In this document: positions 28,674 to 45,555 of the stretch, piece by piece
How positions within the stretch are numbered: the stretch's first letter is position 1
Layout: every line of letters begins with the position of its first letter
NCBI GenBank assembly: GCA_965228735.1
Contig: OZ245838.1
Location: 1,403,011 to 1,467,010 of the forward strand
Direction of reading: 5' to 3'
Length of the DNA: 64,000 bases
DNA from: Planctomycetota bacterium
GTDB taxonomy: Bacteria > Planctomycetota > UBA1135 > UBA2386
Program-made: the position numbers and the translations under genes
The notes under the pieces: model-generated
Databases searched by the model: none
Seen by the model: the letters and a program-made list of their open reading frames with translations, nothing else
What the model was told of the DNA's origin: nothing

Positions 28674-29507
28674 ATGGATCTCACCGCTGCCCTCCTCCAG
28701 TTCCTGGCCTTCCTCCTGCTGGGGCTCGGCCTCGCCGAACCTGCGGTCCGCCGATACGGCCTCGCCGCTGGCGGTCTCGCGGCCCTGTTCGGGCTGGTCC
28801 ACGGCGCCACCGGGCCCGCGGAGCGGACGCTGATGCCGGTCCACCACTACGCCGGCTACGAGGGCAGCGCGCTCGAGGTCAGCATGGTCGCGTTCCCGAC
28901 GATGCCGCTCGACGAGCCGTTTGCCGCGCCGGGCTGGCAGTGGTCGCTGCCGTTCCTCGGGTTCGTTCTGGTCTGGGGCACGATCACGGTGCTGCTCGGC
29001 AAGAAGACCCTGAAGAGCCCGTTCCTGCTGCCGATGCTCTACGCCTGGAGTGCGGCCACGGCGTGGCTGGCCATGCAGGCGCTCGCGGCGCCGAGCGCCG
29101 TCGTGCAGCCGGTCGGCATCGACCGCTTCCTGTGGCCGGCCGGCCTCGCGCTGTCGCTGCTCGTCGCCCGCCAGGCGCGCGGCATCCTCGTCGTGATCAT
29201 CATGGTCAGCGCGTCGATGCTCGCGATCCGGCTGCCGATCGCGATGTTCAGCAAGTATGCGTCCGACGAACGCCTCGGCACCTCGCTCGACATCACGGCC
29301 GTCACCGAGTCGACCGACGCGGAGATCGTCAACCCGATGACGCAGATGACGTTCGATCCAGGCCTGGCCCCGGGCTCCGACGACCAGCAGTTCTGGCTGA
29401 TCTGGCTCGAACACTTGATCATCTTCCCGGCGCTCTACACCCTGAGCCTGTTCGGCATCGCGCTCGGCGTGCACCTCTGGCACAAGCACCGAGACGATCC
29501 GGAGTAG
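28674..29507 (+). CDS. Hypothetical polytopic membrane protein (277 aa)
   Basis: Several hydrophobic helices and two soluble loops; GC3-rich codon usage; no family recognised. Confidence 0.6.
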   Translation: MDLTAALLQFLAFLLLGLGLAEPAVRRYGLAAGGLAALFGLVHGATGPAERTLMPVHHYAGYEGSALEVSMVAFPTMPLDEPFAAPGWQWSLPFLGFVLVWGTITVLLGKKTLKSPFLLPMLYAWSAATAWLAMQALAAPSAVVQPVGIDRFLWPAGLALSLLVARQARGILVVIIMVSASMLAIRLPIAMFSKYASDERLGTSLDITAVTESTDAEIVNPMTQMTFDPGLAPGSDDQQFWLIWLEHLIIFPALYTLSLFGIALGVHLWHKHRDDPE

Positions 29508-29622
29508 AGCGGAGGCGCACCGGAGTCTGCCGAACGGTACCGCTCCGTACGGTACCGGGTTCACGTTGCCGGCCGTGAGGGCGTTGCCTCACGGCTGGCG
29601 TCCGGCCGGCCGGCAGCTTCCC

Positions 29623-31314
29623 CTACTGCTTCTTGTCGGCCTTGCGCTCGAGCTCGTCGGCGAGCTTCGGGGCGTCGTAGATCTTGCGCAGGGACTCGAT
29701 GATGATCGCCGGGTGGACGGAGACCGAGCGGGTGATCTCGTCGTCGTAGACGTAGCGGTTGCCGAGCATCTCGATGTTGCCGTCGAAGATCAGGCCGACG
29801 ACCTCGAGGTCCTTGTTGACGACCGGTGAACCCGAGTTGCCGCCGATGATGTCGTTCGTCGCGACGAAGTTGAACGGCGTCGTCAGGTCGAGCTGCTCCT
29901 CGCGCTCGAGCCACGCCTTCGGCAGGTCGAACGGGTGCTCACCGCCGAACTCGTGGTGGCGCGCGAACAGGCCGTAGAGCGTCGTGTAGTGCGGCGCGAT
30001 CGTGCCGTTGTACTCGTAGCCCTTGACGACGCCGTCGCTGAGGCGCAGCGACATCGTCGCGTCCGGCGGGATCTCCGTGCCGTAGACGGCGAAGCAGGCC
30101 TCACCGACCTGCTTGTTGAGCTCCGTCTCCTGCGCCTGCAGCTCGGCCATGGCGTCGCGATCACCGCTCGCCTCGACCTTCTTGGCCTGGATCGCCGCGA
30201 TCTCGTCCCAGACCTTGCCGTACTTTTCGCTGAGCTTCGGGTCCTTGGCAACGGCCGCGCGCAGCTCGTTCTCGGCCTTCTCCTTGACCGCCATGATGCG
30301 CGGGTTGCGCAGGCCGTCGAGGTAGCCCTGGAACGCCTTGCGGGCGTTCTCGATCTGCAGGATCTGCGACGTGAGCTGCTTCTTCGCCTCGGCGCTCTGC
30401 TTGGCGCGCGCATTGAGGTTGTCGAGCATCGCATGGATGCGCTGCAGCATGCCCGGGTAGTAGTGATCGCGCCGGTACTCGCACTGCGCGAGCGTCTGCA
30501 GCCGGCCCGTGCTGCCCGGGTTGCCCGTGACGAACACGACCTCACCCTTGGCGGCACCCTTCGTCTGCCAGTCGAAGCACATCTCGCTGCTGTCGATCGG
30601 CTTGCCGTCCTTGCCGTAGGCGCGCAGGAACGAGAAGTCGAGACCCCAGCGCGGGTAGCAGAAGTTGTCCGGATCGCCGCCGAAGTGCGCGCTCTGGCCG
30701 TGCGGGGCGCAGACGAGCCGCAGGTCGTCGTAGATCTTGTGGCTGTAGAGCATGTAGAGCCCGCCCTGGTAGAGCGAGACGACCTCGTGGTAGAGGTCGG
30801 GCTCGGCCTTCCTGGCGGCGTCCTTCACCGCCTGCTCGCCCTGGTCGCGCACCTCGGCGGTCACGTCCTTCTGCGCGACGAGCTGCGACACGACCGCGCC
30901 CGGGATCTTGACCTCGTTCTCGTAGGCGCCGGCGTAGAAGCCGTCGGTCTGCCAGTCGTTCTCACCCTGCGTCGACGCGATGAAGTCGCGCGCGCAGTGG
31001 TGGTTCGTCATCACGAGGCCGTAGGGGCTCACGAACGACGCCGAGCAGAAGTAGCTGTAGCCGTTCGCGCCGCCCTCGCGGCCGAGGCGCAGCGACGCCA
31101 TGCGGGCGTGGTCGAGCCACTTCTCCGACGGCTGCCAATCGTAGGCCTGCTGGAACCAGCCGAGCGGCGCGTGCTCGAAGGTCCACATGCGGCCGAGTTC
31201 CTTGCGCGCCTGCGCACTGGTCTCGGTCGCGAAGCCGAGGCTCGTGGCCGCGAGGAGAAGAACGGAGATGAGGGGCCGCCGCCGGCGGCCGACAGTGTCG
31301 TGCAGGTGTGTCAT
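29623..31314 (-). CDS. S46 family dipeptidyl peptidase (DPP7-like), compact form
   Basis: GRMWT, CSASFVS, TNHHC (His), FGGDPDNF..PR..LDFSFLR (Asp), DIIGGNSGSP (Ser), GLIFDGN. Confidence 0.92.
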   Translation of the reverse strand: MTHLHDTVGRRRRPLISVLLLAATSLGFATETSAQARKELGRMWTFEHAPLGWFQQAYDWQPSEKWLDHARMASLRLGREGGANGYSYFCSASFVSPYGLVMTNHHCARDFIASTQGENDWQTDGFYAGAYENEVKIPGAVVSQLVAQKDVTAEVRDQGEQAVKDAARKAEPDLYHEVVSLYQGGLYMLYSHKIYDDLRLVCAPHGQSAHFGGDPDNFCYPRWGLDFSFLRAYGKDGKPIDSSEMCFDWQTKGAAKGEVVFVTGNPGSTGRLQTLAQCEYRRDHYYPGMLQRIHAMLDNLNARAKQSAEAKKQLTSQILQIENARKAFQGYLDGLRNPRIMAVKEKAENELRAAVAKDPKLSEKYGKVWDEIAAIQAKKVEASGDRDAMAELQAQETELNKQVGEACFAVYGTEIPPDATMSLRLSDGVVKGYEYNGTIAPHYTTLYGLFARHHEFGGEHPFDLPKAWLEREEQLDLTTPFNFVATNDIIGGNSGSPVVNKDLEVVGLIFDGNIEMLGNRYVYDDEITRSVSVHPAIIIESLRKIYDAPKLADELERKADKKQ

Positions 31315-31439
31315 GCGGAATTCGTGTCTATGGCCCGCAGTCTACGCACGGGCTACGGCAGCGGCGAACCGCAGTTGCCGCCTTTTTCCAGCCAAGCCGC
31401 GGTCACTACCGCGGCAGACAAGGTGCGGTCACTACCGCG

Positions 31440-32657
31440 TCAGCCGGCAACCACGAGCAGATCCCGCACGAACGCCTCGGACATCTCGAGCGTGAAGTCG
31501 AGGTCGTCGTGGCGCACGACGATCCAGCCGTCGCCCACCACGACCTTGCGCCAGTCCTTCTTCGGGTGCCCGACGGGCGTGAGCTCGATCGACGCGATGT
31601 GCGGGCCGTAGCGCTGCAGCAGCTCGCGCAGGCCGCGGTGCTCGACGACCGTGGACCCGGCCCCCTGCGCCCGCTTGAAGATCATCGACGCGTTGTACTT
31701 CGGCTTCGTGTCCTGACTCAGCCGGCCATAGCAGATCGCCTCGGCCCAGCCGCGAAACAGGTCGATGTCGTAGCCGTAGTTCATCGCGTGGACGAGCCGC
31801 GCGCCCGGCGGCCGACCGCCGATCTCGCCGAAGACCGCCTCGCCGCTCGCGGTCCGGAACCACTCCATGTGCGTGAACCCGGACTCGAACCCGAGCGCCT
31901 GCAGCACGCCGTGCCCGAGCTCGACCCCCGGCCGCGGCAGCTCCGCGTGGATGTCCTTGAGCACGATGTTCTGCATCGAGATCCACTCGTGCTGCGCGAG
32001 GATCATCGGCTTGGGCTTGTACCACGACACGTTCTCGAACAGCACCTTGCCGCCGGCGCACACCGTGTCGTAGGTCAGCTCCTCGCCCTCGACGTACTCC
32101 TCGACCGAGATCTCCTCGACGTGGCGCGTGCGCGCGAGCGCCTGCTCGAACTCGGCCCGATCCCCGCAGCGGAACGTGTTCTGGCTGCCGGCCCCGTCGA
32201 TCGGTTTGACGATCGCCGGATACCCGACCTGCTCGGCGACGGCCCACGCCTCGCTCTGCGTGCGCGCGCGCCCGTGCCGCGGCACGCGTAAACCGGCGGC
32301 CTCGACGGCCTGCTTCATCGCTTCCTTGTCGCGCACGACGGCGGTCTGCGCCATCGTCATGCCGGGCACGTCGAACGCGTGGCGCAGTCGCGCGGCCAGG
32401 TACATGAGGCGTTCCCACGAGCACTCGACCCGATCGACGCTGCGGCCACGGAGCCAGCTGCGCACGCGTTCGACCGCGGCCTCTTCGTCGGCGAACGAGC
32501 ACTGCAGGTAGTCGGCGAGGACCTCGCGCGCCTCCTGCGGCAACGCCGCCGCCGGTTGGTCGCCGACGCCGTAGACGCGGGCACCGACCTGGGCGAGTCC
32601 GCGCGCGAACAGCGGCATCTCGGCGGGAAAGCCAGGACTGAGAAAGACGACGTTCAT
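31440..32657 (-). CDS. ATP-grasp ligase, paralog A
   Basis: RDKEAMK, GYPAIVKPIDGAGS, EEYVEGEE, THMEWF, EIGGRPPG; start ATG 32657. Confidence 0.88.
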   Translation of the reverse strand: MNVVFLSPGFPAEMPLFARGLAQVGARVYGVGDQPAAALPQEAREVLADYLQCSFADEEAAVERVRSWLRGRSVDRVECSWERLMYLAARLRHAFDVPGMTMAQTAVVRDKEAMKQAVEAAGLRVPRHGRARTQSEAWAVAEQVGYPAIVKPIDGAGSQNTFRCGDRAEFEQALARTRHVEEISVEEYVEGEELTYDTVCAGGKVLFENVSWYKPKPMILAQHEWISMQNIVLKDIHAELPRPGVELGHGVLQALGFESGFTHMEWFRTASGEAVFGEIGGRPPGARLVHAMNYGYDIDLFRGWAEAICYGRLSQDTKPKYNASMIFKRAQGAGSTVVEHRGLRELLQRYGPHIASIELTPVGHPKKDWRKVVVGDGWIVVRHDDLDFTLEMSEAFVRDLLVVAG

Positions 32658-32700
32658 GGTGCTTGCTGCGCGGGTCCCTGAGCGAACAACTTGCGAGCGG

Positions 32701-33954
32701 TCAACTCCCGAGCTCGACACGCACGGTGGTGAGAATGCGGTCGGCAGCCGCCTGCACGACCTCGGTGTCCGGGTGCCGGACGATCACATGCCCCTCGCCC
32801 TCGTAGCTCGCGCTCGGCGCCTGACCGACCTCCGGCATCATCGCCTCGACGATCAGCGGGCCGAGCTCCTGCTCGATCTCCCGCACGCCGTGGACGGCCG
32901 TCACGCGCCGCGCGCCGCCGCGCCCCCGCTTGCCGTCCTGGCCGGCGAGCTGACCGCGCAGGTAGACCGCGGCGACCGCGTACTGCCGCGCCGGCGGCTC
33001 GAACCGTTCGAACACCATGAGCTCGGCGAACGCGCGATACATGTCGCGGTCGTAGGCGTAGCTCATGAGCGACACGAACTGCGCGCCCGGCGGCCGCGCG
33101 GCGACCTCGCCGATCGCGATCGAACCGTCGTCGCGCCGGAACCACTCCATGTGGGTCATCCCGGTCCACATGCCGAGCGCCTGCAGCGCCGCGGGACCGA
33201 AGCGGTGGATCTGGGCGTACTCCGGCCCGTCGATCTGGCGCGGGAGCACGACGCACCACTGGATCCACGGGTTGTCCATCACCGTGAGCGGCGTCGGGTG
33301 GTAGCTCGAGATGCTGTGCAGCACATGCATGCCGTGCAGCGTGATCGAGTCGAACGAGAACTCGCGCCCCTGCACGAACTCCTCGACGAGCACCTCGCGG
33401 CCGGGTGCGGGCCGCGTCGCCTGCAGGAAGTGCCGCAGGTCGTCCTGGTTCTCGCAGCGTGACGTCGACTTGGCCCCGGCCCCGGCCGGCGGTTTGGCGA
33501 CGAGCGGATAGCCGATCGCGCTCGCGAACGCCTCGGCCATCGCCGCCGAGCTGCAGAGCCGGTGCCGCGCGGTGCCGATCCCGTGCGAGCTGAGCACCTC
33601 CTTCATGCGCGCCTTGTCGCGGAAGTTCCTGGCCTCCTGGCGATCCATACCGCGGATGGACAGCTCCTCGCGCACCTGGCCGAGCGGCTCCTGCAGCGGC
33701 TCGAGGATGCCGAGCAGGCGTTCGACCTCACCGTGGGCCGCGCCCAGCTCGCGCACCGAACGCGCGATCACCGCGGGATCGAGGGCGTCGCCGACCGTGC
33801 GCAGGTCCACGAGCCGATCGGTCAGGTCCGCGGGCAACGCGGATCGTTGGTCCTGCGTCACGACGCTGAGCTCGACGCCCGGCAGCGCGGCGACCGCGCG
33901 CGCGAATCGCAGCGAGCTTTGCATTCCGAACGGGATGACGAAGACGACGTGCAT
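32701..33954 (-). CDS. ATP-grasp ligase, paralog B
   Basis: RDKARMK, GYPLVAKP..GAGA, EEFVQGRE, THMEWF, EVAARPPG; start ATG 33954. Confidence 0.88.
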   Translation of the reverse strand: MHVVFVIPFGMQSSLRFARAVAALPGVELSVVTQDQRSALPADLTDRLVDLRTVGDALDPAVIARSVRELGAAHGEVERLLGILEPLQEPLGQVREELSIRGMDRQEARNFRDKARMKEVLSSHGIGTARHRLCSSAAMAEAFASAIGYPLVAKPPAGAGAKSTSRCENQDDLRHFLQATRPAPGREVLVEEFVQGREFSFDSITLHGMHVLHSISSYHPTPLTVMDNPWIQWCVVLPRQIDGPEYAQIHRFGPAALQALGMWTGMTHMEWFRRDDGSIAIGEVAARPPGAQFVSLMSYAYDRDMYRAFAELMVFERFEPPARQYAVAAVYLRGQLAGQDGKRGRGGARRVTAVHGVREIEQELGPLIVEAMMPEVGQAPSASYEGEGHVIVRHPDTEVVQAAADRILTTVRVELGS

Positions 33955-34098
33955 GAGAGCGGAGCGGTCGCGCATGCTATTGCGACCACCGCGCCGTCGC
34001 TACCTTTGAGCCACCGCTCTCGCGCGGAGCGCCCATCGTTGCGAACTTCGGCGACACCACGCTCGCGTCGTGGCGGCCGGCATGCGAGCATCGCAGTC

Positions 34099-35565
34099 AT
34101 GCGTCCCCTGCGCATCTGCCTCGCCGCCTCGGAGCTGTCGCCGTACGCCAAGACCGGCGGCCTCGCCGACGTGGTCACGGGTCTCGGCCGGTATCTCGGC
34201 CGGGCGGGCCACGAGACCCGCATCTTCGTGCCGCTGTATCGCAGCATCGCGGAGTCGGACCTCCAGACCACGGTGCTCGAACGAGCTCAGGACATCGACG
34301 TCCGGTTCCCCGACCGCACCGTCCGGTTCTCGATCCGGACCGCGACGTTGCCAGGGCAGGAGAACGGCAGCTCGCCGCAGGTGTGCTTCGTCGACTGCCC
34401 CGAGCTCTACCACCGGGCCGGCCTCTACACCGAGGACGGCGACGAGTCGCTGCGCTTCGCGACGCTCAACCGCGCCGTGCTCGACACGTGCCAGCGCCTC
34501 GGCTGGGCGCCGGACGTGATCCACTGCAACGACTGGCACACGAGCCTGATCCCGCTGCTGCTGCGCACGACGTATCACTGGGACAAGCTGTTCCGCAAGA
34601 CCAGGACCCTGCTGACGATCCACAACATCGGCTACCAGGGCTCGTTCGCCGACAGCCACCTCAAGACGATCGGCCTCGACGATCAGCGCGCACACCTGCA
34701 CCACGGCGACCTGCGCGACGGGCGCTTCGCGTTCCTCAAGACCGGCGTGCTGCACGCCAACAAGCTGTCCACGGTCTCGGTGACGTACGCCGAGGAGATC
34801 CAAACCGCGGAGTACGGCATGGGGATGGAAGAGCTGCTGCAGACGCGCAAGCGCGACCTGGTCGGCATCGTCAACGGCGTCGACTACGGCGACTGGGATC
34901 CGGCGACCGATCCGCTGATCCCGCACCACTACTCCGCCGACGATCCGAGCGGCAAGGCCAAGATGAAGGCCGCGCTGCTGCAGCGCATGGAGCTGCCGCA
35001 CGACCCGCGCGCCCCGGTGTTCGGCGTCGTCTCGCGCCTCACGGCGCAGAAGGGCTTCGAGCTGTTCGCCGACTCGATCCCGGTCTTCCTGCAGCGCGAG
35101 GACATGCGCCTCGTCGTGCTCGGCTCGGGCGAGAGCAAGCACGAGACCTACTTCCAATGGCTGCGCGACACGTGGCCCGACAAGGTCGGGCTCTACCGCG
35201 GCTTCCACAACGAGCTCGCCCACTGGATCGAGGCCGGCAGCGACGTGTTCCTCATGCCGTCGCGCTTCGAGCCGTGCGGGCTCAACCAGATGTACAGCCT
35301 GCGCTACGGCACCGCGCCGATCGTGCGCAAGACCGGCGGGCTCGCCGACACGGTGCAGCCGTGGGATCCCGCGGCCCGCACCGGCACGGGCTTTCTGTTC
35401 GAGGAGTACACGAGCCAGGCGCTCGCCGGCACGATCGACTGGTGCCTGCGCAACTGGCGCGACCAGGAGGGCTGGCGGCAGTTGATCAAGAACGGCATGC
35501 AGCGCGATTTCTCCTGGGACCGCCAGGGCGCCGAGTACGTGAAGCTCTACCGTGAGCTGGCCTGA
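34099..35565 (+). CDS. glgA: Glycogen/starch synthase (GT5)
   Basis: SELSPYAKTGGLADV, HCNDWHT, TIHNIGYQG, GIVNGVDY, MPSRFEPCGLNQMYSLRYG, TGGLADTV. Confidence 0.96.
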   Translation: MRPLRICLAASELSPYAKTGGLADVVTGLGRYLGRAGHETRIFVPLYRSIAESDLQTTVLERAQDIDVRFPDRTVRFSIRTATLPGQENGSSPQVCFVDCPELYHRAGLYTEDGDESLRFATLNRAVLDTCQRLGWAPDVIHCNDWHTSLIPLLLRTTYHWDKLFRKTRTLLTIHNIGYQGSFADSHLKTIGLDDQRAHLHHGDLRDGRFAFLKTGVLHANKLSTVSVTYAEEIQTAEYGMGMEELLQTRKRDLVGIVNGVDYGDWDPATDPLIPHHYSADDPSGKAKMKAALLQRMELPHDPRAPVFGVVSRLTAQKGFELFADSIPVFLQREDMRLVVLGSGESKHETYFQWLRDTWPDKVGLYRGFHNELAHWIEAGSDVFLMPSRFEPCGLNQMYSLRYGTAPIVRKTGGLADTVQPWDPAARTGTGFLFEEYTSQALAGTIDWCLRNWRDQEGWRQLIKNGMQRDFSWDRQGAEYVKLYRELA

Positions 35566-35633
35566 GCCGGACACGGCTCCGCCAGACCTCACCGCTCGAC
35601 CTCACCGGCCACCGACCGCAGAAACCCCACCCC

Positions 35634-36854
35634 ATGCACGTCGTTCTCGTCGAACCTGCCTTCCCAGCCAACCAGCGCGAGTTCCTGCGCGGCCTGCTCT
35701 CCACGGGCGCGCGCATCTCCGCGATCAGTGAGCGGCCACCCGAGGCGTTGCCCACCGACCTCCGAGAAGGACTGTTCCAGCACGAACGCATCCGGTCCGT
35801 CGTCGACGAACGCGCGCTCGCCGACGCGGTCAAACGGTTGTCACAGCGCGCGCGCGTCGACCGACTCGAGGCGACGATCGAGGCCCACGTGATGGCCGCG
35901 GCCCACGTACGCGAGCACCTCGACATCCCCGGCACGACGAGCAAGACGGCGTGGCTCTGCCGCGACAAGCCGGCGATGAAGGACGCCGTTCGCGAAGCCG
36001 GGATCGCGTGTGCCGCGAGCGCGCGCGTGACGAGCCCCGAGGACGCGCGCGCGTTCGCCGAACGCGAAGGCTACCCGTTGATCCTCAAGCCGCTCGACGG
36101 CGCCGGCGCGTCCGGCACGCACAAGGTCGACGACGTCGACCAGCTCGAGTCGGTGATCGCGGAGCTCGGCGTCGACCGCGGGCGCGAGGTCGCGATCGAG
36201 GAGTTCCTGTCCGGCCACGAGGGTTTCTACGACTCTCTCTGCGTCGCGGGGAAGCCGGTGATCGACTTCGCGTGTCACTACTTCCCCAACGTGCTCGAGG
36301 CGATGCGCACGCGCTGGATCTCGCCGCAGATCCTCGTGACGAATCGCATCGGCGAATCGACCTACGAAGAACTGCGTACGATGGGTCAGGCCGCGATCTC
36401 GGCGCTCGGCATCTGGACGTCGGCAACGCACATGGAGTGGTTCTTCGGCGAGAAGGGCCTGAAGTTCTCCGAGATCGGCTGCCGCCCGCCGGGCGTCGGC
36501 GTGTGGGACCTCTACTGCTCGGCCAACGAATTCGATCTCTACGCGGCGTGGGGCCACGCGATCGTGCACGAGGACGTGCCGTTCGAACCGTCGCGCAAGT
36601 ACGCCGCCGGGATGATCGCGCTGCGCCCCGAGAAGGACGGGACGATCACGGGCTACGACGGGCTCGACGAACTGCAGCGCCGCTACGGCGAGTGGATCCT
36701 CGACGTGCACACGCCGCCGCCGGGCACCAGGACGCAGGGCGTCGAGGCGGGCTACATGGCCAACGCCTGGATCCGCATGCGGCACCCGGACTACGACGCG
36801 CTGCGTTCGATGTTCGATACCGTCGGCGAGTTGGTGAAGGTGCGCGCGCGCTGA
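35634..36854 (+). CDS. ATP-grasp ligase, paralog C
   Basis: RDKPAMK, GYPLILKPLDGAGA, EEFLSGHE, THMEWF, EIGCRPPG. Confidence 0.9.
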   Translation: MHVVLVEPAFPANQREFLRGLLSTGARISAISERPPEALPTDLREGLFQHERIRSVVDERALADAVKRLSQRARVDRLEATIEAHVMAAAHVREHLDIPGTTSKTAWLCRDKPAMKDAVREAGIACAASARVTSPEDARAFAEREGYPLILKPLDGAGASGTHKVDDVDQLESVIAELGVDRGREVAIEEFLSGHEGFYDSLCVAGKPVIDFACHYFPNVLEAMRTRWISPQILVTNRIGESTYEELRTMGQAAISALGIWTSATHMEWFFGEKGLKFSEIGCRPPGVGVWDLYCSANEFDLYAAWGHAIVHEDVPFEPSRKYAAGMIALRPEKDGTITGYDGLDELQRRYGEWILDVHTPPPGTRTQGVEAGYMANAWIRMRHPDYDALRSMFDTVGELVKVRAR

Positions 36855-36987
36855 GGACCGACGCGCCGCCGACACGGCCGAGCGTACGAACACCCGGGAC
36901 CGTAGAACGGCCCGGGCATCATCCATCGCGGTCATTGCCCCCGAGTTCGTCCGTAAGCACCTCTCGATGGCGCGTCCGGCTCCTGCA

Positions 36988-36996
36988 GTGCTACAA
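36988..36996 (+). promoter_or_regulatory. GTGCTACAA motif (extended -10-like) upstream of PKD paralog 1
   Basis: The identical 9-mer occurs at 39631-39639 at nearly the same distance from the second paralog's ATG. Confidence 0.5.
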
Positions 36997-37033
36997 CAGT
37001 GGTCTGTCTCTTCCGCTCCAACTTCGTTTCATC

Positions 37034-39364
37034 ATGAGTGCGACACCTGTCCGTTTTCTCGTCCCGGCCATCCTGGCTGCGGGCCTCTCCTCGAGCCTCA
37101 CGGCGCAATTCACCGTCGTCGTGCCCGACGGCACGGCCAACGCGCCGGGCAACTCCTCCAACGCGTTCCCCTGGGGCACCACCGCCGGGTCCTTCCCCGG
37201 TCTGCGGCTGATGGCGACCTACGGTGCAGTCAACTTCACCAACCAGGCCGTCAACTCGCCGATCCTGATCACGGGCGTCAAGTGGCGGCCGAACGACACC
37301 TCCGCGGCCGTCGGCGGCGGCCAGTTCAACGCCGGGACGATCGAGATGTCGACCTCGGCCGTCGGCCAGGCCAACGTCACGACCAACTTCGCCACCAACC
37401 ACGGTGTGGATCGCACGGTCGTCTATGACGCGGCGGTCAACGGGCCGGTCGTGCACACGCCGTCGCCCGGCTCGGGGGCCTGGACGCCGCAGTCCTGGGT
37501 CGTCGACGTGACGCTCGCCACGCCGTTCCTCTACGACCCCACGTCCGGCGACCTCGTCGTCGACGTCGACTACCCGACCGGCAGCTTCTCCGGGGCGGGC
37601 GTCGGCCAGATGGACATCCAGTCGACGGGTAGCAACTCGTCGCGCGTCTTCGCCAGCACGAACTACCCGGCCGCCAACGGCACGACCTCGAACCACGGCC
37701 CGGTCATCGAGCTGACCTACGTGCCGCCCGTCGGCGTGTACGCGAACTTCAGCGCCAACGTGCAGACCGGCCCGTCGCCGCTGATGGTCAACTTCACCGA
37801 CACGAGCTTCAGCAGCCCCAACCCGATCACGTCGTGGGCCTGGGACTTCGAGAACGACGGCACCGTCGACTCGACCGCCCAGAACCCGTCGCACACCTAC
37901 GCGTCGTGCGGCGAGTTCGACGTCAGCCTGACGGTCACCGACAGCCTGAACCAGTCCTCGACCCTGGTCAAGAACGCCTTCATCGCCGTCGACCCGCTCG
38001 CGGCCGACTTCACGGCGACGCCGACGTTCGGCGCCGAACCGCTCATCGTGAACTTCACGGACACGTCGACCGGCGGGTCCGCGGTCCCGATCATGTGGGA
38101 GTGGGACATGGACGGCGATGGTGTCTTCGACATCATGGGCACCACGCCAGCCGAGCAGAACCCCGTCTGGGTCTACCTCGGCGGCACCTACACCGTCACG
38201 CTCCGCACGACCTTCGCCTGCACGAGCGGCGTCGGTGTCGTAACGGAGACCAAGACCGACCTGATCACGTGCGTCGGCGCGACGACCAACACGCAGGGCG
38301 CGGACCTCTTCGAGTTCCAGTTCAACGAAGTGCGCGGCGACCAGGCCTTCAACGCCGCGTCGACGACCGCGGCGCCGGCGTCGGCGACCGTCAGCTCGAC
38401 GACCTGGCAGGTCGACCCGGGCCGCCTGGACTTCAAGGGCGACGGCCCGACGGGCGCGCTCGGCAACGGCGGCCTCGTCGCGACCGGCCACGCGCTCGAT
38501 CAGCAGGGCAGCATGACGATCTGCTGGTGGCAGCGCCTGAACACGCCCCCGGGCGCCTCGCTCGCGTACGTGTTCGGCGGCTCGGGTGGCAGCTTCCGCT
38601 GCTTCACGGGCGGCGTCGCGGGGAACACCCTGTGGTACCGCGGCAGCTCCATCGGTGACGTGCAGGCGAGCTACGACGTCCAGGCCAACGCCGGCGTCTG
38701 GGAGCACGTCGCGCTCGTCGTCGACGACACCGCGGGCACGGCCGACTGGTACTTCAACGGCGTGTTCGACACGTCGACCGCGTTCCCGGCCGGCACCCAC
38801 ACGGCGACCAACACCGACTACCACGTCGGCTACCACACGAGCACCGCGTCGATCTACACCTCGGGCTACGACCTGGACGACTACCGGCACTACAACAACG
38901 CCCTGACCGCGACCGAGATCGCGGCCATCGCGTCCGGGACCGAGCACGCCGCGAGCACGAACTACGGCAGCGGTTGCGCCGGTTCGGCGGGCACCCCGTC
39001 GATCTCCGGCAACGAAGCGCCGGACGGCAGCGGCCCCATCGGCACGCCGACCTACAGCGTCAACCTCAGCGGCGCCCAGCCGAACGCCGGTGCGTTCCTC
39101 GCGTTCGGCTTCCTCGCGGGCAGCAACCCGCTGCTGCCGTTCGACCTCGGCGCGGTCCTCGGTGCCCCCTACGCGGGTTGCGAGATCCACACCGACGCGA
39201 GCTCGGCGCTGTTCCTCCTGACGGATGCCTCCGGCTCCGCGTCGGTGCCGCTGCCGATCCCGGGCAACGGTCAGTTCACGCAGCTGCACATCTACTGTCA
39301 GTACATGGTGCTCGACAGCACCGTGGGCTCCGTTTCGGACGCCCTCGACGTCAACATCAAGTAG
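37034..39364 (+). CDS. Secreted protein: N-terminal domain, 2 PKD domains, LamG-like domain, conserved two-Cys C-terminal domain (776 aa)
   Basis: Signal peptide MSATPVRFLVPAILAAGLSSSLTAQ; PKD motifs VNFTDTS..WAWDFENDG..QNPSHTY and VNFTDTS..WEWDMDGDG; WEHVALV..WYFNG..LDDYRHYNNALT (LamG). Confidence 0.88.
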   Translation: MSATPVRFLVPAILAAGLSSSLTAQFTVVVPDGTANAPGNSSNAFPWGTTAGSFPGLRLMATYGAVNFTNQAVNSPILITGVKWRPNDTSAAVGGGQFNAGTIEMSTSAVGQANVTTNFATNHGVDRTVVYDAAVNGPVVHTPSPGSGAWTPQSWVVDVTLATPFLYDPTSGDLVVDVDYPTGSFSGAGVGQMDIQSTGSNSSRVFASTNYPAANGTTSNHGPVIELTYVPPVGVYANFSANVQTGPSPLMVNFTDTSFSSPNPITSWAWDFENDGTVDSTAQNPSHTYASCGEFDVSLTVTDSLNQSSTLVKNAFIAVDPLAADFTATPTFGAEPLIVNFTDTSTGGSAVPIMWEWDMDGDGVFDIMGTTPAEQNPVWVYLGGTYTVTLRTTFACTSGVGVVTETKTDLITCVGATTNTQGADLFEFQFNEVRGDQAFNAASTTAAPASATVSSTTWQVDPGRLDFKGDGPTGALGNGGLVATGHALDQQGSMTICWWQRLNTPPGASLAYVFGGSGGSFRCFTGGVAGNTLWYRGSSIGDVQASYDVQANAGVWEHVALVVDDTAGTADWYFNGVFDTSTAFPAGTHTATNTDYHVGYHTSTASIYTSGYDLDDYRHYNNALTATEIAAIASGTEHAASTNYGSGCAGSAGTPSISGNEAPDGSGPIGTPTYSVNLSGAQPNAGAFLAFGFLAGSNPLLPFDLGAVLGAPYAGCEIHTDASSALFLLTDASGSASVPLPIPGNGQFTQLHIYCQYMVLDSTVGSVSDALDVNIK

Positions 39365-39678: not shown

Positions 39679-41802
39679 ATGAGTGCGACACCCTTCCGAC
39701 TCCTCGCTTCCACCGCCCTGCTGACCGCCGGGCTCGCCACCGGGCTCGACGCGCAGCAGACCGTCGTCATCCCCAACGGCATGGCCAACGCTGCCGGCAG
39801 CACGGCCAACAACTTCCCCTTCGGCTACACGGGCACCGCGTGGCCGGGCCTGCGCACGATGGCGTGCTACGACACGTCGCACTTCACGCAGCAGGGCATC
39901 AACCAGCCGATTCTGATCCAGTCGATCTCCTGGCGCGCCAACGACACGACGGCGTCCTGGACCGGCGGCACGCACCCGAACGCGACGATCGCGATGGCGA
40001 GTGCCGCGGTCGACTACACCGCGGTCACGACCACCTTCGCGTCGAACGTCGGCCCGGACTACGCGGTCGTCTACACCGGTCCCGTCACGGTCACGGCCGG
40101 CGCGGGCGCCGGCACGGGCACGCCGTCGCCGTTCTACATCACGGTGCAGATCCCCGGCGCGGGCTTCCTCTACGACCCGACCGCGGGCAACGACCTGATC
40201 GTCGACTGTGACAACATGCTCGGCGGCTGGTCCGGCGGTTCGACGACCTCGCACGATGTCGACGGCAGCCCCAGCGCGATGGCGAGCCGCATCTATGCGA
40301 GCTCGAACTACCCGACGGCCAACGGCACGACCCAGAACCACGGCATCGTGATCGAACTCGGCTACGTCCCGGCCTCGGGTCTCTACGCCAACTTCGACTC
40401 GGACGTCCAGACCGGCAGCTCGCCGCTGACGGTGAACTTCACCGACACGTCGTTCACGAGCACGCCGACCGGCGTGACCACGTGGGCGTGGGACTTCGAG
40501 AACGACGGCACGATCGACTCGACGCTGCAGAACCCGTCACACGTCTACCCGGCGTGCGGTTCGTACGACGTCGCGCTGACCGTCGACGACGGCGTCTTCC
40601 CGACCTCCACGATCGTCAAGAACGCGTTCATCCAGCCGGACCTGGTGCCGATCACCCCGAGCTTCTCGGTCACGCCGATCGCGGCGAACGTCTACCAGTT
40701 CATGGACACGTCGACCCCGACGCCCACGGCGTGGGAGTGGGACTTCGACAACGACGGCATCGTCGACTCGACGGGTCAGAACCCGGCATGGGCATTCCCG
40801 TCGCCGTGCGGCGCCGAGGAGATCCGCCTCGCGGTCTACAACCAGTGTCACGGCCCGTGGGAGACCGTGCAGTCGCTCGCGATCGCGCCCAACACGTTCT
40901 CGACGACGTTCGTGCCGAACAACGGTCTCTCCGGCAACGGCGCCGGCAACCTGTTCGACATCGACGTCACGAACCCCCGCGGCGTGAACATCTGCGGCCT
41001 CACTCTGACGCCGTACTCGACGACTGCCGGCAACCCGATCACGTGTGAGGTCTGGGTGACCGACGCGCCCGGCGGCGTGCAGGGCAACTACAACGACCCG
41101 AGCGTCTGGCGCCTGATGACGACCGGCTCCGGCATCGACACCGGCACGACGGGCGCGCTGACGGCCTTCGACCTCAACCAGCCGCTCTACCTGCCGTTCG
41201 GCCAGTACGCGATGGCGATCGGCACGAGCCAGGGCCTGCGTTACCAGACGCTGAGCGCCGGCCCGACGACGGTCGTCGGCCCGGACTTCACGATCACGGC
41301 GGGCCGCAGCGCTTCCACGCTGTTCACGGCCGGCATCGACAACCGCGCCATCTGCGGCGAGCTGGCCTACAGCATCGCGGGCGGCGGCGACCTCGCGGGC
41401 TTCGGCCTCGAGGGCATCGGTTGCCCGGGCTCGCTGGGTCAGTCGACGATCACCGCGAGCGGCCCGCCCCAGATCGGCACGACCTTCACGGTCACGGTCG
41501 ACAACCTGCCAGCCAACGCCGCGATCCTGATGACCGGCTTCAGCAACACGACGTCGGTGCTCGGCAGCCTGCCGCTCAGCACTGCGCCGTTCGGCGCCCC
41601 CGGCTGCGCGCTCAACATCAGCCCGGACGTCAACACGTTCCTGGCCGGCACGGGCAACACCGTGAGCTCGAGTCTGACGATTCCGGCCAACGCGGTGCTG
41701 ATCGACGTGCTGATGTTCCAGCAGGCCGTCGTCCTCGACCCGGGTTTCAACGCCGCCAGCGCAGTCGGCTCGGACAGCTCCGCGGTCTACGTGGGCCTGT
41801 AG
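39679..41802 (+). CDS. Secreted PKD-domain protein with conserved two-Cys C-terminal domain (707 aa), tandem paralog
   Basis: Signal peptide MSATPFRLLASTALLTAGLATGLDAQ; PKD motifs WAWDFENDG..QNPSHVY and WEWDFDNDG..QNP. Confidence 0.88.
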   Translation: MSATPFRLLASTALLTAGLATGLDAQQTVVIPNGMANAAGSTANNFPFGYTGTAWPGLRTMACYDTSHFTQQGINQPILIQSISWRANDTTASWTGGTHPNATIAMASAAVDYTAVTTTFASNVGPDYAVVYTGPVTVTAGAGAGTGTPSPFYITVQIPGAGFLYDPTAGNDLIVDCDNMLGGWSGGSTTSHDVDGSPSAMASRIYASSNYPTANGTTQNHGIVIELGYVPASGLYANFDSDVQTGSSPLTVNFTDTSFTSTPTGVTTWAWDFENDGTIDSTLQNPSHVYPACGSYDVALTVDDGVFPTSTIVKNAFIQPDLVPITPSFSVTPIAANVYQFMDTSTPTPTAWEWDFDNDGIVDSTGQNPAWAFPSPCGAEEIRLAVYNQCHGPWETVQSLAIAPNTFSTTFVPNNGLSGNGAGNLFDIDVTNPRGVNICGLTLTPYSTTAGNPITCEVWVTDAPGGVQGNYNDPSVWRLMTTGSGIDTGTTGALTAFDLNQPLYLPFGQYAMAIGTSQGLRYQTLSAGPTTVVGPDFTITAGRSASTLFTAGIDNRAICGELAYSIAGGGDLAGFGLEGIGCPGSLGQSTITASGPPQIGTTFTVTVDNLPANAAILMTGFSNTTSVLGSLPLSTAPFGAPGCALNISPDVNTFLAGTGNTVSSSLTIPANAVLIDVLMFQQAVVLDPGFNAASAVGSDSSAVYVGL

Positions 41803-41883: not shown

Positions 41884-42639
41884 TCAGGCGAGCCGCAAGC
41901 GGAAGCGCCGAACCGCGACTTCCTCGCCGCCGCCCGCGCGCCGCATCGCCAGCGCTCCCACGAAGTCGGGGCCCGGCGACACGTCGAGCATGCGCCAGGC
42001 ATCGGGCTGCTCGTCGCCCTCGCGGCACGCGCAGAGCCTCGGCTCCTCGTCGATGCTGACGTCGAACGTGTCGAGCCCCATCGTCAGGCCCTCGCCGAGC
42101 GCCTTGATGTAGGCCTCCTTGCGGGTCCAGCAACGATAGAACGCGAGCAGGCGCGCCTGGTCATCGAGCCTCTCGAGACCGTCGAACTCCGCGGCCGAGA
42201 AGTGCCGGCGCGCGATCTCGCGGTAGCTCTCGAGGCGGCGCAGCTTCTCGCAGTCGACGCCGAGCTCGGTCGCCGCGACGCCGATCAGCGTCAGCTTGCC
42301 CGAGTGCGACAGACTGAAGAACGGCGCGCCGTCGCCCTCGAGATACGGCTTGCCCTTCGGCCCGAGGCGGAACTCGAGGTCCGCGGGCGCCTTCCCGACG
42401 TAGCCCGCGAGCACGTGGCGCAGCGCCCCGTGCGTGATCTCGTAGCGCCGCCGATGGTCCGCGAAGTGAAAGCGCCCGGCGCGTTCCCGTTCGCCCACGG
42501 ACAGCGGCGCCAGGAACGGCTCGGGGTCGCCGTCGAGCGGCACGGCCCACAGGTGCACCGCGACGCCCGCAGCCGCCGACAGTTCGAATCGGCCCGGGGC
42601 GGTCGCACCGAAGTCGTCGAACAGGGCGATCTCGTCCAT
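41884..42639 (-). CDS. Sfp-type 4'-phosphopantetheinyl transferase
   Basis: GPKGKP, FSLSHS, LGVDCE, FYRCWTRKEAYIKALGEGL. Confidence 0.93.
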   Translation of the reverse strand: MDEIALFDDFGATAPGRFELSAAAGVAVHLWAVPLDGDPEPFLAPLSVGERERAGRFHFADHRRRYEITHGALRHVLAGYVGKAPADLEFRLGPKGKPYLEGDGAPFFSLSHSGKLTLIGVAATELGVDCEKLRRLESYREIARRHFSAAEFDGLERLDDQARLLAFYRCWTRKEAYIKALGEGLTMGLDTFDVSIDEEPRLCACREGDEQPDAWRMLDVSPGPDFVGALAMRRAGGGEEVAVRRFRLRLA

Positions 42640-42660: not shown

Positions 42661-45555
42661 TCAGCGCGGCAACGCCAGCCGGAACGGGCCGGCCGGGAGC
42701 CCGGCCGCATTGCGCAGGTTGGCATCGGGCACAGCAGTCCACGCGTAGCGCACGGCAACCGGCGCTTCGATGCCGGCCGCCTTCACCTCGACGAGATCGG
42801 CGGCGACGACCCGTGCGGTCGCCGGCACGAACTCCGATCGCCCCCGCGCGCGGACCTCGAAGCCGCTGACGGCACCATCCGCAGCGAGCGGGCTCGCGCT
42901 CGCCGCGAACCGCACCAGCAGCGCCTCGCCCGTCGCCTCGAGGCCGACCGCGACCGGGCCGTCGCAGACGACGTTCTCACCGTAGCAGTGCCGCAGCGCG
43001 TGCAGCGCCAGCCGCTGGCCGACCGCCTGCTTGTTGCGCGGATGGATGTCACGCGCGTTGCCGATGTCGAGCGTCACGACCATCCCCGTCCGCGGCAGCC
43101 GCAGCGCCTGCGTCTGCGCCCAGCGCAGATCGACGCCGCCGAGACGTTCGCCGGCGTAGGAGAACGGCGCGATCTGGACGAAGTAAAACGGCAGGTCGCG
43201 GCCGAAGTGGTGCCGCCAGTCGCGGATCATCGCGGGGAAGAGCCGTTCGTACTGCGCGGCCCGCAGCCGGTTCGACTCACCCTGGTACCAGATCGCGCCG
43301 CGGAACGGGAACGGGGCGAGCGGCGCGATCATGCCGTTGAACAGGACCGTCGGGCGGTTGGGGCCGGCCGCGCGTCGCGGCCACGCCGGCAGATCGGCGA
43401 TCGCCGGGCCACGCGCGCGCCGCCACGAACCCGCGAGTTCGATCTTCACCTCGGGCGCCCCGCTCGTCGTGATGAGCTGAAGCGCTGCTGGCGCCGCGGT
43501 GAAGCCGCCTTCGCCGCCGGTGTCGACGACCCGCACGATGATCTCGAGCTCCGCGCGTGCTCCGACCAGCGCGCCCGGGATCGCGTACTGGCGCGGCGTC
43601 GACCACGCCCCGTCGCGCTCGAGCCCGCCGATGCGCTGACCGTTGCACCAGGCCGTGTCCATGTCGTCGACCGCGCCGAGGTCGAGCCGCAGGTCGCGAC
43701 CGCGCAGGACGTCGGGCACGGGCAGGACCTGGCGATAGAACGCGACGCCATCGAAGTCGCCGAGGCCGCTCTCGGACCATCGGTCGGGCATCTCGACGAG
43801 TTGCCACGCGGCGTCGCCCGGGGCCGGCACTCCGGGCACCGCGCTCCAGAACCGCTGCATCGCGGCGTCGCGACCGTCACCGGCAGCCAGCCGGCGGATC
43901 GCCGGCGCGAACTCGGGGAACGCGTCCAGACCCGGCGCGCTCGTCCACGCCTCGCAGATCGTCCCGCCCCACGCCGACACCACGAGACCGATCGGACCGT
44001 GACCGCGCTGGAGCAGCTCGCGCGCGAAGAAGTACGCCGACGCCGAGAAGCCGCCGGCCGTCGCGGGCGAGCACACCAGCCACTCGCCCTCGATCGCGTC
44101 GAGCGGCACGGCGCTCGTCTTCTTCTGCACGGTGAACACGCGCAGCTCCGGGAAGTCGGCGGCCGCGACTTCCTGCTCCCAGTTCCTCACGCCCTGGCGC
44201 CAACCGCTGTGCCGCCCGACCTCCATCTCCATGTTGGATTGCCCCGAGGCGAGCCACACGTCGCCGACGAGCACGTCGCGGATCGCGATCTGCTGATCGT
44301 CGCACGCCAACGTCAGCGAGTGCGCCCCGCCTTGCCCTGGGGTCACGACGGCGCAGCGCCAAGAGCCGTCGGCGGTGACCGTCGTCGTTGTCTCGGCGCC
44401 CCACGACGTCGTGACCGCAACCGGCGATTGCGCCGGCCCGTGGCCGCGCAGCATGATCGTCGCGTCGGCCGGCAGCACCATGTGATCACCGAACAGCGCC
44501 ATCACGGTGAACGGGGTGACGGCGCGCTCGGCGAGCCGGGCGATCCGACCGTTGCTGCCACACGCGATCACCGTTCCGTCCGCCGCACGTTCGAGCGCGT
44601 GAAACCCCGTCGCGCCGAACGGCGCCCAGGTGCGGCCGCCGTCTCGCGACCGACTCGCGCCGTGCGACCCGACCGCGAGCACGGTCGATTCGTCGAGCCA
44701 GGCCACCGCGGAACGGAAGCCCCCGGCATTGCTGCGGGTCCACGTCGCGCCACCGTCCGCCGTCCACGCCGCGGTCCCGGCCGCGCGCTCGGGCTCGTCG
44801 TAGAGCCCGCCGACCACGACGCCGCGCCGGCCGTCGAACGTCACGGCGAACGCGCCGCCGGCCGGCGCGCCGTGCTCGAGCGGCAACCCGACCGACTGCC
44901 AGCTGCGCCCGGTATCGCGACGCGAGAAGCAGCGCGCGCGGGCCCCGCCGGTCACGATTCGCGCGACCCCGGCCGTGACGTCGATGCACGAACCGCTCGC
45001 GGCGAACCCGTATTCGCCTTCGATCGCCTCGGGCAACCCGGTCACGGGTCCCCACGTGCGGCCACCATCGGTCGAACGCCGGACGTACATCTGCCCGCCG
45101 AGCGGGTCACCGAACAGATAGCCCGTCTCCCCTTCGAACTCGATGCTGTCGAAGAACGCCGCCGGGTCGCGTTCGGCGTGCACGCGCTGCCACGACCCGC
45201 CGCCGTCCGTGGTGCGATAGAGGTGCGCGGGCTGCCCGGCGACCATCGCGACCGCCGTGCTGGCGTCGAACGCGTGCAGGTCGCGGAAGTCGAACCCGGC
45301 GACGCCTTCGACCCGCGGCGCGACGTTCGCGAACGTCGCGCCACCGTCACCCGAGCGCAGGATCGTGCCGCCCGTGCCACCCGCCCAGATCGTGCTCCGG
45401 TCGACGACCGCGAGCGCGCGCAGGCTCAGGCCGGCGCGTTCATGGAGCACATCCCACGCCGGATCGCGCTGCGCCCCATCGGCCTGACCCGGCGCGGCGA
45501 CAGCCAACAGAATCGCGCCCACGAGGCCGTTCGACAGCAGCGACGAGGTGTTCAT
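42661..45555 (-). CDS. Secreted fusion: BNR/Ycf48-like beta-propeller + sialate O-acetylesterase (SASA) with galactose-binding insert (964 aa)
   Basis: BNR repeats (RSGDGGATF, RTTDGGGSW, RSTDGGRTW); SASA motifs GDVWLASGQSNM, WGGT, IWYQGESN, IHPRNKQAVG; start ATG 45555. Confidence 0.88.
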   Translation of the reverse strand: MNTSSLLSNGLVGAILLAVAAPGQADGAQRDPAWDVLHERAGLSLRALAVVDRSTIWAGGTGGTILRSGDGGATFANVAPRVEGVAGFDFRDLHAFDASTAVAMVAGQPAHLYRTTDGGGSWQRVHAERDPAAFFDSIEFEGETGYLFGDPLGGQMYVRRSTDGGRTWGPVTGLPEAIEGEYGFAASGSCIDVTAGVARIVTGGARARCFSRRDTGRSWQSVGLPLEHGAPAGGAFAVTFDGRRGVVVGGLYDEPERAAGTAAWTADGGATWTRSNAGGFRSAVAWLDESTVLAVGSHGASRSRDGGRTWAPFGATGFHALERAADGTVIACGSNGRIARLAERAVTPFTVMALFGDHMVLPADATIMLRGHGPAQSPVAVTTSWGAETTTTVTADGSWRCAVVTPGQGGAHSLTLACDDQQIAIRDVLVGDVWLASGQSNMEMEVGRHSGWRQGVRNWEQEVAAADFPELRVFTVQKKTSAVPLDAIEGEWLVCSPATAGGFSASAYFFARELLQRGHGPIGLVVSAWGGTICEAWTSAPGLDAFPEFAPAIRRLAAGDGRDAAMQRFWSAVPGVPAPGDAAWQLVEMPDRWSESGLGDFDGVAFYRQVLPVPDVLRGRDLRLDLGAVDDMDTAWCNGQRIGGLERDGAWSTPRQYAIPGALVGARAELEIIVRVVDTGGEGGFTAAPAALQLITTSGAPEVKIELAGSWRRARGPAIADLPAWPRRAAGPNRPTVLFNGMIAPLAPFPFRGAIWYQGESNRLRAAQYERLFPAMIRDWRHHFGRDLPFYFVQIAPFSYAGERLGGVDLRWAQTQALRLPRTGMVVTLDIGNARDIHPRNKQAVGQRLALHALRHCYGENVVCDGPVAVGLEATGEALLVRFAASASPLAADGAVSGFEVRARGRSEFVPATARVVAADLVEVKAAGIEAPVAVRYAWTAVPDANLRNAAGLPAGPFRLALPR

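Follow-up and report, generated by a model that had tools for sequence, protein, structure and literature searches.

A gene set of ATP-grasp ligases and hydrolases that co-occurs with a GT5 glycogen synthase in Planctomycetota and beyond

Introduction

Why would a glycogen synthase gene be enclosed by three paralogous genes for ATP-grasp ligases? This arrangement is found in a stretch of 64,000 nucleotides from a Planctomycetota bacterium (contig OZ245838.1, positions 1,403,011 to 1,467,010; here called the window). The ligase genes B and A are oriented away from the glycogen synthase gene, here named glgA*, which is followed by the ligase gene C. The window is part of a single contig of 7.19 Mb, and the closest relatives of its proteins are encoded in metagenome-assembled genomes labelled Planctomycetota. 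Few parts of bacterial physiology are considered to be as well understood as glycogen metabolism, and yet glgA and glgC are tied to an unnamed set of eight enzymes, five of them ligases and three hydrolases.

The initial annotation treated the three ligases and glgA as a unit. The trio was confirmed, but the full unit turned out to be larger. About nine genes co-occur, which encode the ligases A, B, C, D and E, a protein with a predicted S51 fold, the esterases EstL and EstS, and the GT5 synthase. This set is repeatedly linked, in independently rearranged forms, to GT5 genes, to glgC and to other glucan genes. The enzymes come from known superfamilies, and their combination and the tie to glycogen genes appear to be undescribed; a search of the full-text literature retrieved no paper that ties ATP-grasp or L-amino-acid ligases to glycogen synthase.

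Results

Three paralogous ligases around a canonical glycogen synthase

The coordinates, pairwise BLASTP comparisons and the GT5 score were all in agreement with the view of three paralogous ATP-grasp ligases around glgA (Table 1). Over their full lengths, A and B share 30% identity (3e-54), A and C 34% (1e-68), and B and C 32% (3e-59). In a three-way alignment, all motifs that had been claimed for the trio were invariant, i.e. RDK..MK, GYP...KP..GAG, THMEWF, E...RPPG and the terminal RHxD. The ATP-grasp residues were invariant as well (the Lys after the RDK-type motif, the K-P strand and Gly-rich loop, the EE hinge and E...E-x-x-x-R), and they were kept throughout 49 aligned orthologs of A to D. 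These orthologs formed four distinct paralog classes, each with signature residues of its own and all with the catalytic motifs. Judged from their sequences, A, B and C are members of the ATP-grasp superfamily.

The three proteins matched generic Pfam ATP-grasp models just above the cut-offs. The scores for BacD, DdaF and other equivalog models were 20–33 bits, compared to cut-offs of about 850. A match to LAL_C2 (PF18603) was found only for C and had 16.6 bits versus a cut-off of 29.4, and thus the proteins did not fall into the L-amino-acid ligase (LAL) family at the sequence level. A PDB search retrieved L-amino-acid ligases as the nearest solved relatives, first 4wd3 (2.6e-11) and then BacD and BL00235.

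The orthologs of A in related genomes were 49–86% identical, and those of B 52–74%. The most conserved member was C, with 52–84% identity in the sample of the phylum and 58–84% across the best 80 loci of the wider comparison (both described below). A fourth paralog, D, is encoded at 5,893,105–5,894,319 of the same genome; it is 45% identical to C and stands alone. Upstream of the D gene, at a distance of 18 bp, is a gene resembling dtd (D-aminoacyl-tRNA deacylase, by eye; G000:C1:5893105-5894838, L023:9102-10838, minus strand). This neighbour, found only in the genome of the window and in G013, is a weak hint at D-amino acids. The gene context of D (dtd, hsp20, cbb3-oxidase, by eye) is kept in one close relative only and was discarded as uninformative.

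For glgA*, the TIGR02095 score (Table 1) can be compared to a cut-off of 328.45 bits, and the protein matched PF08323 (Glyco_transf_5) with 233.6 bits and PF00534 with 67 bits. The structure of E. coli GlgA (2qzs) was matched at 7e-82, and 2qzs and 4hln aligned over residues 6–486. The motifs KTGGL, HNDWH, SRL..QKG and FEPCGL are all present. By sequence, glgA* is a canonical GT5 glycogen synthase of the ADP-glucose type without any unusual insertion.

Conservation of the linkage within the phylum

The conservation of the locus was analyzed with 18 related loci from 17 genomes, which belong to families f1 and f10 of the same order, and with a sample of 401 genomes of the phylum. Families, genomes and loci are denoted by f, G and L codes, respectively, and G000 is the genome of the window. 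Genes in the fetched loci were called with our own caller based on codon-position GC content together with tblastn, and the calls are not curated annotations.

The divergent layout of A and B on one side and glgA and C on the other was kept in 16 of the 16 related loci with enough flanking sequence, and 12 related loci retained the divergent B/glgA junction. In the more distant relatives, the outer neighbours (genes similar to phe-tRNA synthetase and L20, by eye; the S46 peptidase; the phosphopantetheinyl transferase) were gone. Genes inserted within B/glgA/C in the 18 loci were considered as members of the system and rejected, as they are unrelated to the cluster (kinases, sigma factors and secreted proteins, by eye).

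In the phylum sample, orthologs of C were present in 62 of the 401 genomes, from 15 families. Orthologs of E were found in 61 of these 62 carriers and in two further genomes. The glgA* clade, defined by at least 48% identity to the glgA of the window, was present in 44 of the 401 genomes, and 43 of these 44 are C carriers. Of the 62 C carriers, 43–44 have this clade. Whenever the genes of a carrier were on one contig, glgA* was located between A/B and C. In several other families of the sample, the E gene lies between glgA* and C, and presumably the remainder of the hydrolase/E module described below does so as well. The glgC gene was detected in 58 of the 62 carriers versus 212 of the 339 non-carriers.

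The GT5 gene beside C is not always of the same clade. In f30, a different glgA gene adjoins C in convergent orientation, and glgC, glgP and an FGase-like gene are close by. In f32, the genes for E, C, a divergent GT5 protein and a GH13 protein follow one another on one strand. Different GT5 clades (glgA*, f30 and f32) are thus found beside C, which indicates that a GT5 gene was placed there at least three separate times. Families f30, f31 and f32 keep the ligases without a glgA of the clade found in the window. Counter-examples to the linkage occur as well: in f31 the set is split up and has no GT5 gene close by, and two f32 genomes had neither glgA at 1e-60 nor glgC at 1e-80. In the cluster-negative families f2, f3 and f8, glgC and glgA are present alone.

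In the f30 loci L032, L033 and L043, a gene that resembles N-formylglutamate amidohydrolase lies in or beside the glycogen cluster (PF05013, 27 bits, just below the cut-off); in L032 it is located between glgC and glgP. Its homolog in the genome of the window is unlinked, at 3.62 Mb.

A module of two esterases, a fifth ligase and an S51-like protein

Clustering of all genes called in 34 related loci revealed four additional families, which directly followed A in 9–12 loci. They encode an S51-like protein of about 312 aa, EstL of about 380 aa, ligase E of about 414 aa and EstS of about 250 aa.

EstL is a PF00756 esterase with an N-terminal domain of the Fes type, and EstS is a short PF00756 protein. 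The PF00756 scores of the esterases were 62–79 bits, and the serines of the GxSxG motifs are invariant. In the PDB, EstL matched Fes (2b20, 1.9e-12), feruloyl esterases, and CE1 proteins described as having an 'isoamylase N-terminal domain'. Its own N-terminal domain matched only Enterochelin_N, with 20.4–29.7 bits versus a cut-off of 27.1. No carbohydrate-binding module was found above the cut-off in EstL, as CBM_20 remained sub-threshold (E 0.07–0.3) and CBM_48 was undetected. For this reason, a glucan-binding module on EstL was dropped from consideration.

E is a fifth, divergent ATP-grasp protein without any Pfam family above the cut-off. Its AlphaFold model (predicted local distance difference test score, pLDDT, 84) resembles Ddl/VanA, ArgX/LysX and ITPK1.

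The S51-like protein was modelled with a pLDDT of 92.7. The top 17 Foldseek matches in the PDB were all S51 enzymes (E 3.6e-7 to 3.2e-4), including dipeptidase E, cyanophycinase (3en0/7uqw) and pseudo-CphB (7uqv), and according to the model the protein has the S51 fold. The PF03575 score was 22.5 bits for the protein from the genome of the window versus a cut-off of 23.9, and 35.1 bits for the ortholog from f30. Among 45 orthologs, Ser209 was present in 41, His251 in 34 and Glu234 in 44. The His was replaced by Gln, Glu or Asp in 11 of the 45 orthologs, and the Ser by Cys or Ala in four. An antiparallel helical hairpin of about 80 residues (residues 75–152) is inserted in the fold of the protein (G000:C1:2600577-2601515, L030:14577-15515, minus strand).

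No obvious signal peptide was seen in the sequence of any protein of the set, which points to chemistry in the cytoplasm, where glycogen is located. In the cluster gaps of 500–4000 bp at 80 loci, no conserved open reading frame (ORF) of at least 80 aa for a carrier or precursor was found; very short ORFs were not searched.

Both halves of the split set are linked to glycogen genes

In the genome of the window, the set is spread over three loci. A, B, glgA* and C are in the window, the S51-EstL-E-EstS module is at 2,597,432–2,601,515 (minus strand), 1.16 Mb away from the window genes, and D is at 5.89 Mb. The module has glgC as a neighbour at a distance of 2.5 kb (2,593,676–2,594,941, plus strand), and it lies inside a glycogen island, next to genes for a debrancher of the GDE type, a GH57 enzyme and a Glycogen_syn-phosphorylase fusion. 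The closeness of module and glgC is repeated in eight relatives (G001, G006, G008, G013, G018, G019, G033 and G040).

The initial annotation had noted that the window contains no other glg gene, and glgC, glgB and glgP were indeed all absent from it. At the level of the genome, no GH13 glgB was detected at 1e-50, and the glgP query retrieved nothing over 40% of its length. A GH13-type glgB was rejected as a partner of the set because it is missing from this genome and from most carriers.

The fusion protein in the glycogen island is encoded by a single ORF of 1315 aa (G000:C1:2586001-2589945, L030:1-3945, minus strand) and comprises PF05693 (242 bits), DUF3417 and an alpha-glucan phosphorylase domain (PF00343). 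The PF05693 part represents a glycogen synthase of the eukaryotic/archaeal type. A matching long open frame of about 1,320–1,980 aa was found at every PF05693 match except for a contig fragment in G012, namely in 18 of the 19 cluster-positive relatives as well as in G021, G032 and G037. It is unusual for one polypeptide to combine synthesis with phosphorolysis.

Joint loss of unlinked members

Of the 25 sampled genomes of family f1, 19 carry the ligases. In the other six, which represent six genera, A to D, E, glgA and glgC are all missing. D is unlinked to A–C, and E is likewise unlinked where the set is split, as in the genome of the window. One of the six cluster-less genera, G021, keeps the fusion with the GT3-type glycogen synthase. 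This shows that the set tracks the ADP-glucose/GT5 branch and not glycogen genes in general.

Distribution beyond the phylum

When species-representative genomes were scanned with a pattern, at least 588 loci of the C type were retrieved, in genomes that come from soil, sediment and water. The best 80 of these were compared with flanks of 10 kb. They carry the labels Planctomycetota, Acidobacteriota, Gemmatimonadota, Myxococcota, Gammaproteobacteria, Actinomycetota, Chloroflexota, Krumholzibacteriia and Eiseniibacteriota, and several are on contigs of 0.7–6 Mb, e.g. CP011806.1 of 'Acidobacteria bacterium Mor1'. A view of the C family as narrow and restricted to planctomycetes (213 representatives at E<=1e-30) was abandoned: its sequence diversity is low but its taxonomic spread is wide.

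Among the best 80 loci, glgA* was present within 10 kb in 54, and in 41 it was directly beside C, making glgA*-C the most conserved junction. We estimate that fewer than 1% of genes would have a GT5 gene within 10 kb by chance alone. A or B was present in 48 loci, the hydrolase/E module in 46, and glgC, glgP or GH13 in 11. The gene order varied widely and the membership was constant. Many Acidobacteriota loci contained ligase and hydrolase genes without a GT5 gene in the fetched flank. The conserved linkage of ATP-grasp and glucan genes on which the initial annotation had staked its proposal was thus present in other genomes, with GT5 genes recruited more than once, and the genes were also co-located with those for esterases and with glucan-active (amylase-family) genes, which that annotation had asked to check.

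The glgA* clade

In a maximum-likelihood tree, the 18 sampled glgA* sequences formed one clade. The support of this node was moderate (86/83), and it was 100/99 when the sister sequence from G086 was included. The 'other' glgA of f10, the glgA of f30 and the GT5 protein of f32 were on separate branches. In families f10, f42, f59 and f69, the carriers have glgA* and the non-carriers have only a different glgA; the f10 carriers hold glgA* plus another glgA. In f1, glgA* is the sole GT5 gene and tracks glgC.

Families are mixed inside the clade. The f59 sequence clusters with two from f1, and one f10 sequence with one from f1 (glgA tree, loci L005-L066). This hints at horizontal transfer of the whole cluster between lineages.

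Genes of the window and its surroundings

Table 1. Positions (in the window) of the ligase and synthase genes and of the divergent intergenic region
Feature	Position	Strand	Length	Remarks
ATP-grasp ligase A, L-amino-acid-ligase-like	31440..32657	-	405 aa	Pfam ATP-grasp_3 34 bits vs cut-off 23.2
ATP-grasp ligase B	32701..33975	-	424 aa, or 417 aa from Met8	PF02222 40.3 bits vs cut-off 27
B-glgA divergent intergenic region	33976..34098		123 bp	presumably contains both promoters; read from sequence
glgA*, GT5 glycogen synthase, ADP-glucose type	34099..35565	+	488 aa	TIGR02095 523.8 bits
ATP-grasp ligase C	35634..36854	+	406 aa	Pfam CPSase_L_D2 29.1 bits vs cut-off 19.8

B precedes A on the minus strand with 43 bp between them, and on the plus strand 68 bp separate glgA* from C, which follows it. 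The start of A was placed at the ATG of 'MNVVFL', which is common to the orthologs; the GTG upstream, at 32720, might define a longer ORF. The ORF at 34383–35555 in the mechanical list was rejected as glgA because it is in the wrong frame, and the true frame is that of 33562–35565. The codon-position GC pattern agrees with the frames called for A, B, glgA and C. No sigma-70-like site was found, terminator-like sites were not more frequent than in shuffled sequences, and the region 29000–39000 gave no Rfam match. Inspection by eye of the B/glgA intergenic regions of 13 genomes revealed short boxes richer in AT near each start and no clear common operator.

A gene for an S46 dipeptidyl-peptidase with signal peptide (29623–31314, minus strand; PF10459, 487 bits) adjoins A. 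It is beside A only in close relatives (L005, L006, L011 and L013), and therefore it is probably outside the system. Directly downstream of C are tandem genes for secreted proteins (37034–39364 and 39679–41802, plus strand). Both proteins begin with MSATP and share an N-terminal domain and PKD-like repeats (by eye), and the pair is not kept beside the cluster elsewhere. Downstream of these PKD genes are a gene for a 4'-phosphopantetheinyl transferase (41884–42639, minus strand) and a BNR/SASA gene (sialate-O-acetylesterase-like; 42661–45555, minus strand), which are near C in the closest relatives only.

Discussion

A proposed companion compound of glycogen

The gene neighbourhoods suggest that glucan synthesis may be coupled to amide or ester ligation, as the initial annotation had inferred. 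We tentatively propose that the set makes and recycles an amino-acid-derived companion compound, either a reserve or a protective substance, alongside ADP-glucose-dependent glucan, and we assign a probability of about 0.42 to this proposal. Each ligase would convert a carboxylate to an acyl-phosphate and then join it to an amine or a hydroxyl, and the five ligases in succession would assemble units of the amino-acid type into a small oligomer or polymer. The product would probably contain aspartyl-type amide bonds, because the hydrolase with the predicted S51 fold belongs to a group whose characterised enzymes cleave Asp-X or beta-Asp-Arg bonds. It would also contain at least one ester bond, because two esterases are conserved. 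The compound would be made when ADP-glucose-dependent glucan is made, and it would be broken down by the three hydrolases, i.e. the S51-like protein, EstL and EstS.

Several points weigh against this proposal. A, B and C did not reach any of the curated NCBIfam equivalogs, and their substrates are not legible from sequence. The Ser and His residues of the S51-like protein are not universal, and its role as a peptidase may differ or may be lost in some lineages. One loss in a common ancestor could account for the joint absence from six genera. For short contigs, metagenome-assembled genomes may carry incorrect phylum labels. Lastly, a companion compound does not explain why a specific GT5 clade accompanies the ligases and is not merely co-regulated with them.

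Alternative explanations

The product could instead be a glycogen modified with peptides. In favour of this, a specific GT5 clade is inherited together with the set as an integral part of it. The ligases would put amino acids or a short peptide on glucan hydroxyls, one of them forming the ester and the others extending it, while EstL and EstS would remove the modification and the S51-like protein would degrade the released peptide. The conserved glgA*-C junction, the independent recruitment of other GT5 clades beside C, and the position of the esterase module next to glgC and the glycogen island in the lineage of the window are all consistent with such a modification. The solved relatives of EstL include CE1 carbohydrate esterases with CBM48 N-domains, and ester formation by ATP-grasp enzymes has precedents in VanA and the graspetide ligases. 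However, no glucan-binding module reaches the cut-off on EstL, and we know of no ATP-grasp enzyme that esterifies the sugars of a polymer. In addition, f31, f32 and many Acidobacteriota loci keep ligases and hydrolases without a GT5 gene in the flank, and both glgA and glgC are missing from two f32 genomes. Direct decoration of the glucan is therefore less likely than a companion compound, and we regard it as unlikely. The same applies, with a little more reserve, to its general form. According to this, bacteria of many phyla would reversibly graft amino acids or short aspartyl-type peptides via esters onto ADP-glucose-derived alpha-glucan and thereby store nitrogen or charge; stand-alone ATP-grasp enzymes and a dedicated synthase clade would install these groups, and Fes/CE1-like esterases together with the S51-like protein would remove them.

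It is also conceivable, but quite improbable, that the product is a soluble glyco-conjugate, e.g. a compatible solute. In this case glgA* would glucosylate the ligase product or extend a short maltooligosaccharide on it, or the ligases would acylate a maltooligosaccharide. GT5 genes and the ligase trio are found in common operons across phyla, and glgA* need not be the housekeeping enzyme, as the genome of the window has a second synthase of the GT3 type fused to a phosphorylase. The two glgA genes of the f10 carriers, of which the non-carriers have only the other one, also fit this explanation. Against it stand the textbook GT5 sequence of glgA*, its status as the only GT5 in f1, where it tracks glgC, and the lack of any conserved transporter or solute-type regulator nearby.

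Ligation of amino acids to a protein, as performed by RimK, LysX/ArgX or tubulin-tyrosine ligase, is very unlikely. The target could be glgA* or a granule protein, and glucan synthesis would be regulated by the modification and its reversal by the hydrolases. Among the structural neighbours of the E model are ArgX/LysX, whose substrate is the carrier protein LysW, and the tight pairing of glgA* and C could be that of an enzyme and its substrate. But A to D are of the L-amino-acid ligase type, and characterised L-amino-acid ligases act on free amino acids; no carrier or precursor ORF of at least 80 aa is conserved in the gaps of 500–4000 bp, and two esterases are hard to fit in.

The least probable explanation is an independent pathway with inherited or hitch-hiking synteny to glg genes: some lineages do have separated parts or no GT5 gene nearby, and f2, f3 and f8 have glgC and glgA without the cluster, but the linkage has outlasted many rearrangements under about nine phylum labels, three different GT5 clades are found beside C, each module is linked to a glg gene of its own in the genome of the window, unlinked members were lost along with glgA and glgC, and the 54 of 80 loci with a GT5 gene within 10 kb are far from the chance estimate.

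Three new observations came from the window: each half of the set has its own tie to a glg gene, unlinked members were lost jointly with glgA and glgC, and GT5 genes of different clades were recruited to one partner. Should the set make a reserve or protective compound that is new, or decorate glycogen itself, it would represent a missing branch of carbon and nitrogen storage, and it would also be a source of new ligase chemistry.

Comparison with known systems

Several characterised systems share features with the set. In graspetide systems, which produce peptides made by the ribosome and modified after translation (RiPPs), a precursor gene lies beside the ATP-grasp ligase; here no such ORF of at least 80 aa is conserved, and shorter ORFs were not searched.

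EstL shares sequence matches and the invariant GxSxG serine with Fes and with CE1 esterases carrying CBM48 (PF00756). It differs from them in that it has no siderophore context and no carbohydrate-binding module above the cut-off, and in that a short second PF00756 protein and a novel ATP-grasp protein always accompany it.

The cyanophycin system (CphA1 and CphB, S51) likewise combines an ATP-grasp enzyme with a hydrolase of the S51 fold, in the cytoplasm and in the context of reserve metabolism. In contrast to that system, no Mur-ligase fusion of the CphA type is present here, and TIGR02068 (cya_phycin_syn) scored 27–38 bits versus a cut-off of 850. Five separate ligases and two esterases are found instead, and the S51-like protein differs from cyanophycinase by its helical hairpin and by Ser and His residues that are not universal. 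To our knowledge, linkage to glgA or glgC is not a feature of cyanophycin genes.

Bacterial GlgA is closely similar to glgA*, which aligns end to end with the structures from E. coli and Agrobacterium and has kept the catalytic motifs. However, glgA* forms a clade of its own, which is almost confined to genomes with the ligase set and is always beside the set, and the classical glgBXCAP operon context is missing around it.

The L-amino-acid ligases (RizA-type 4wd3, BacD/YwfE 3vmm, and BL00235 3vot) have the same three-domain ATP-grasp architecture and a similar size of about 410 aa. They gave the best matches to solved structures (2.6e-11 to 1.9e-8, residues 43–399), share a Mg/phosphate motif of the E-x-x-x-R-P-x-G type, and are connected to the ligases described here by the weak LAL_C2 signal. 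They differ in that identities are low and equivalog scores are far below the cut-offs. In addition, known L-amino-acid ligases are encoded by single genes in antibiotic or dipeptide pathways, whereas the ligases of this set form four one-to-one paralog classes across phyla, which are tied to a GT5 synthase, esterases and an S51 protein.

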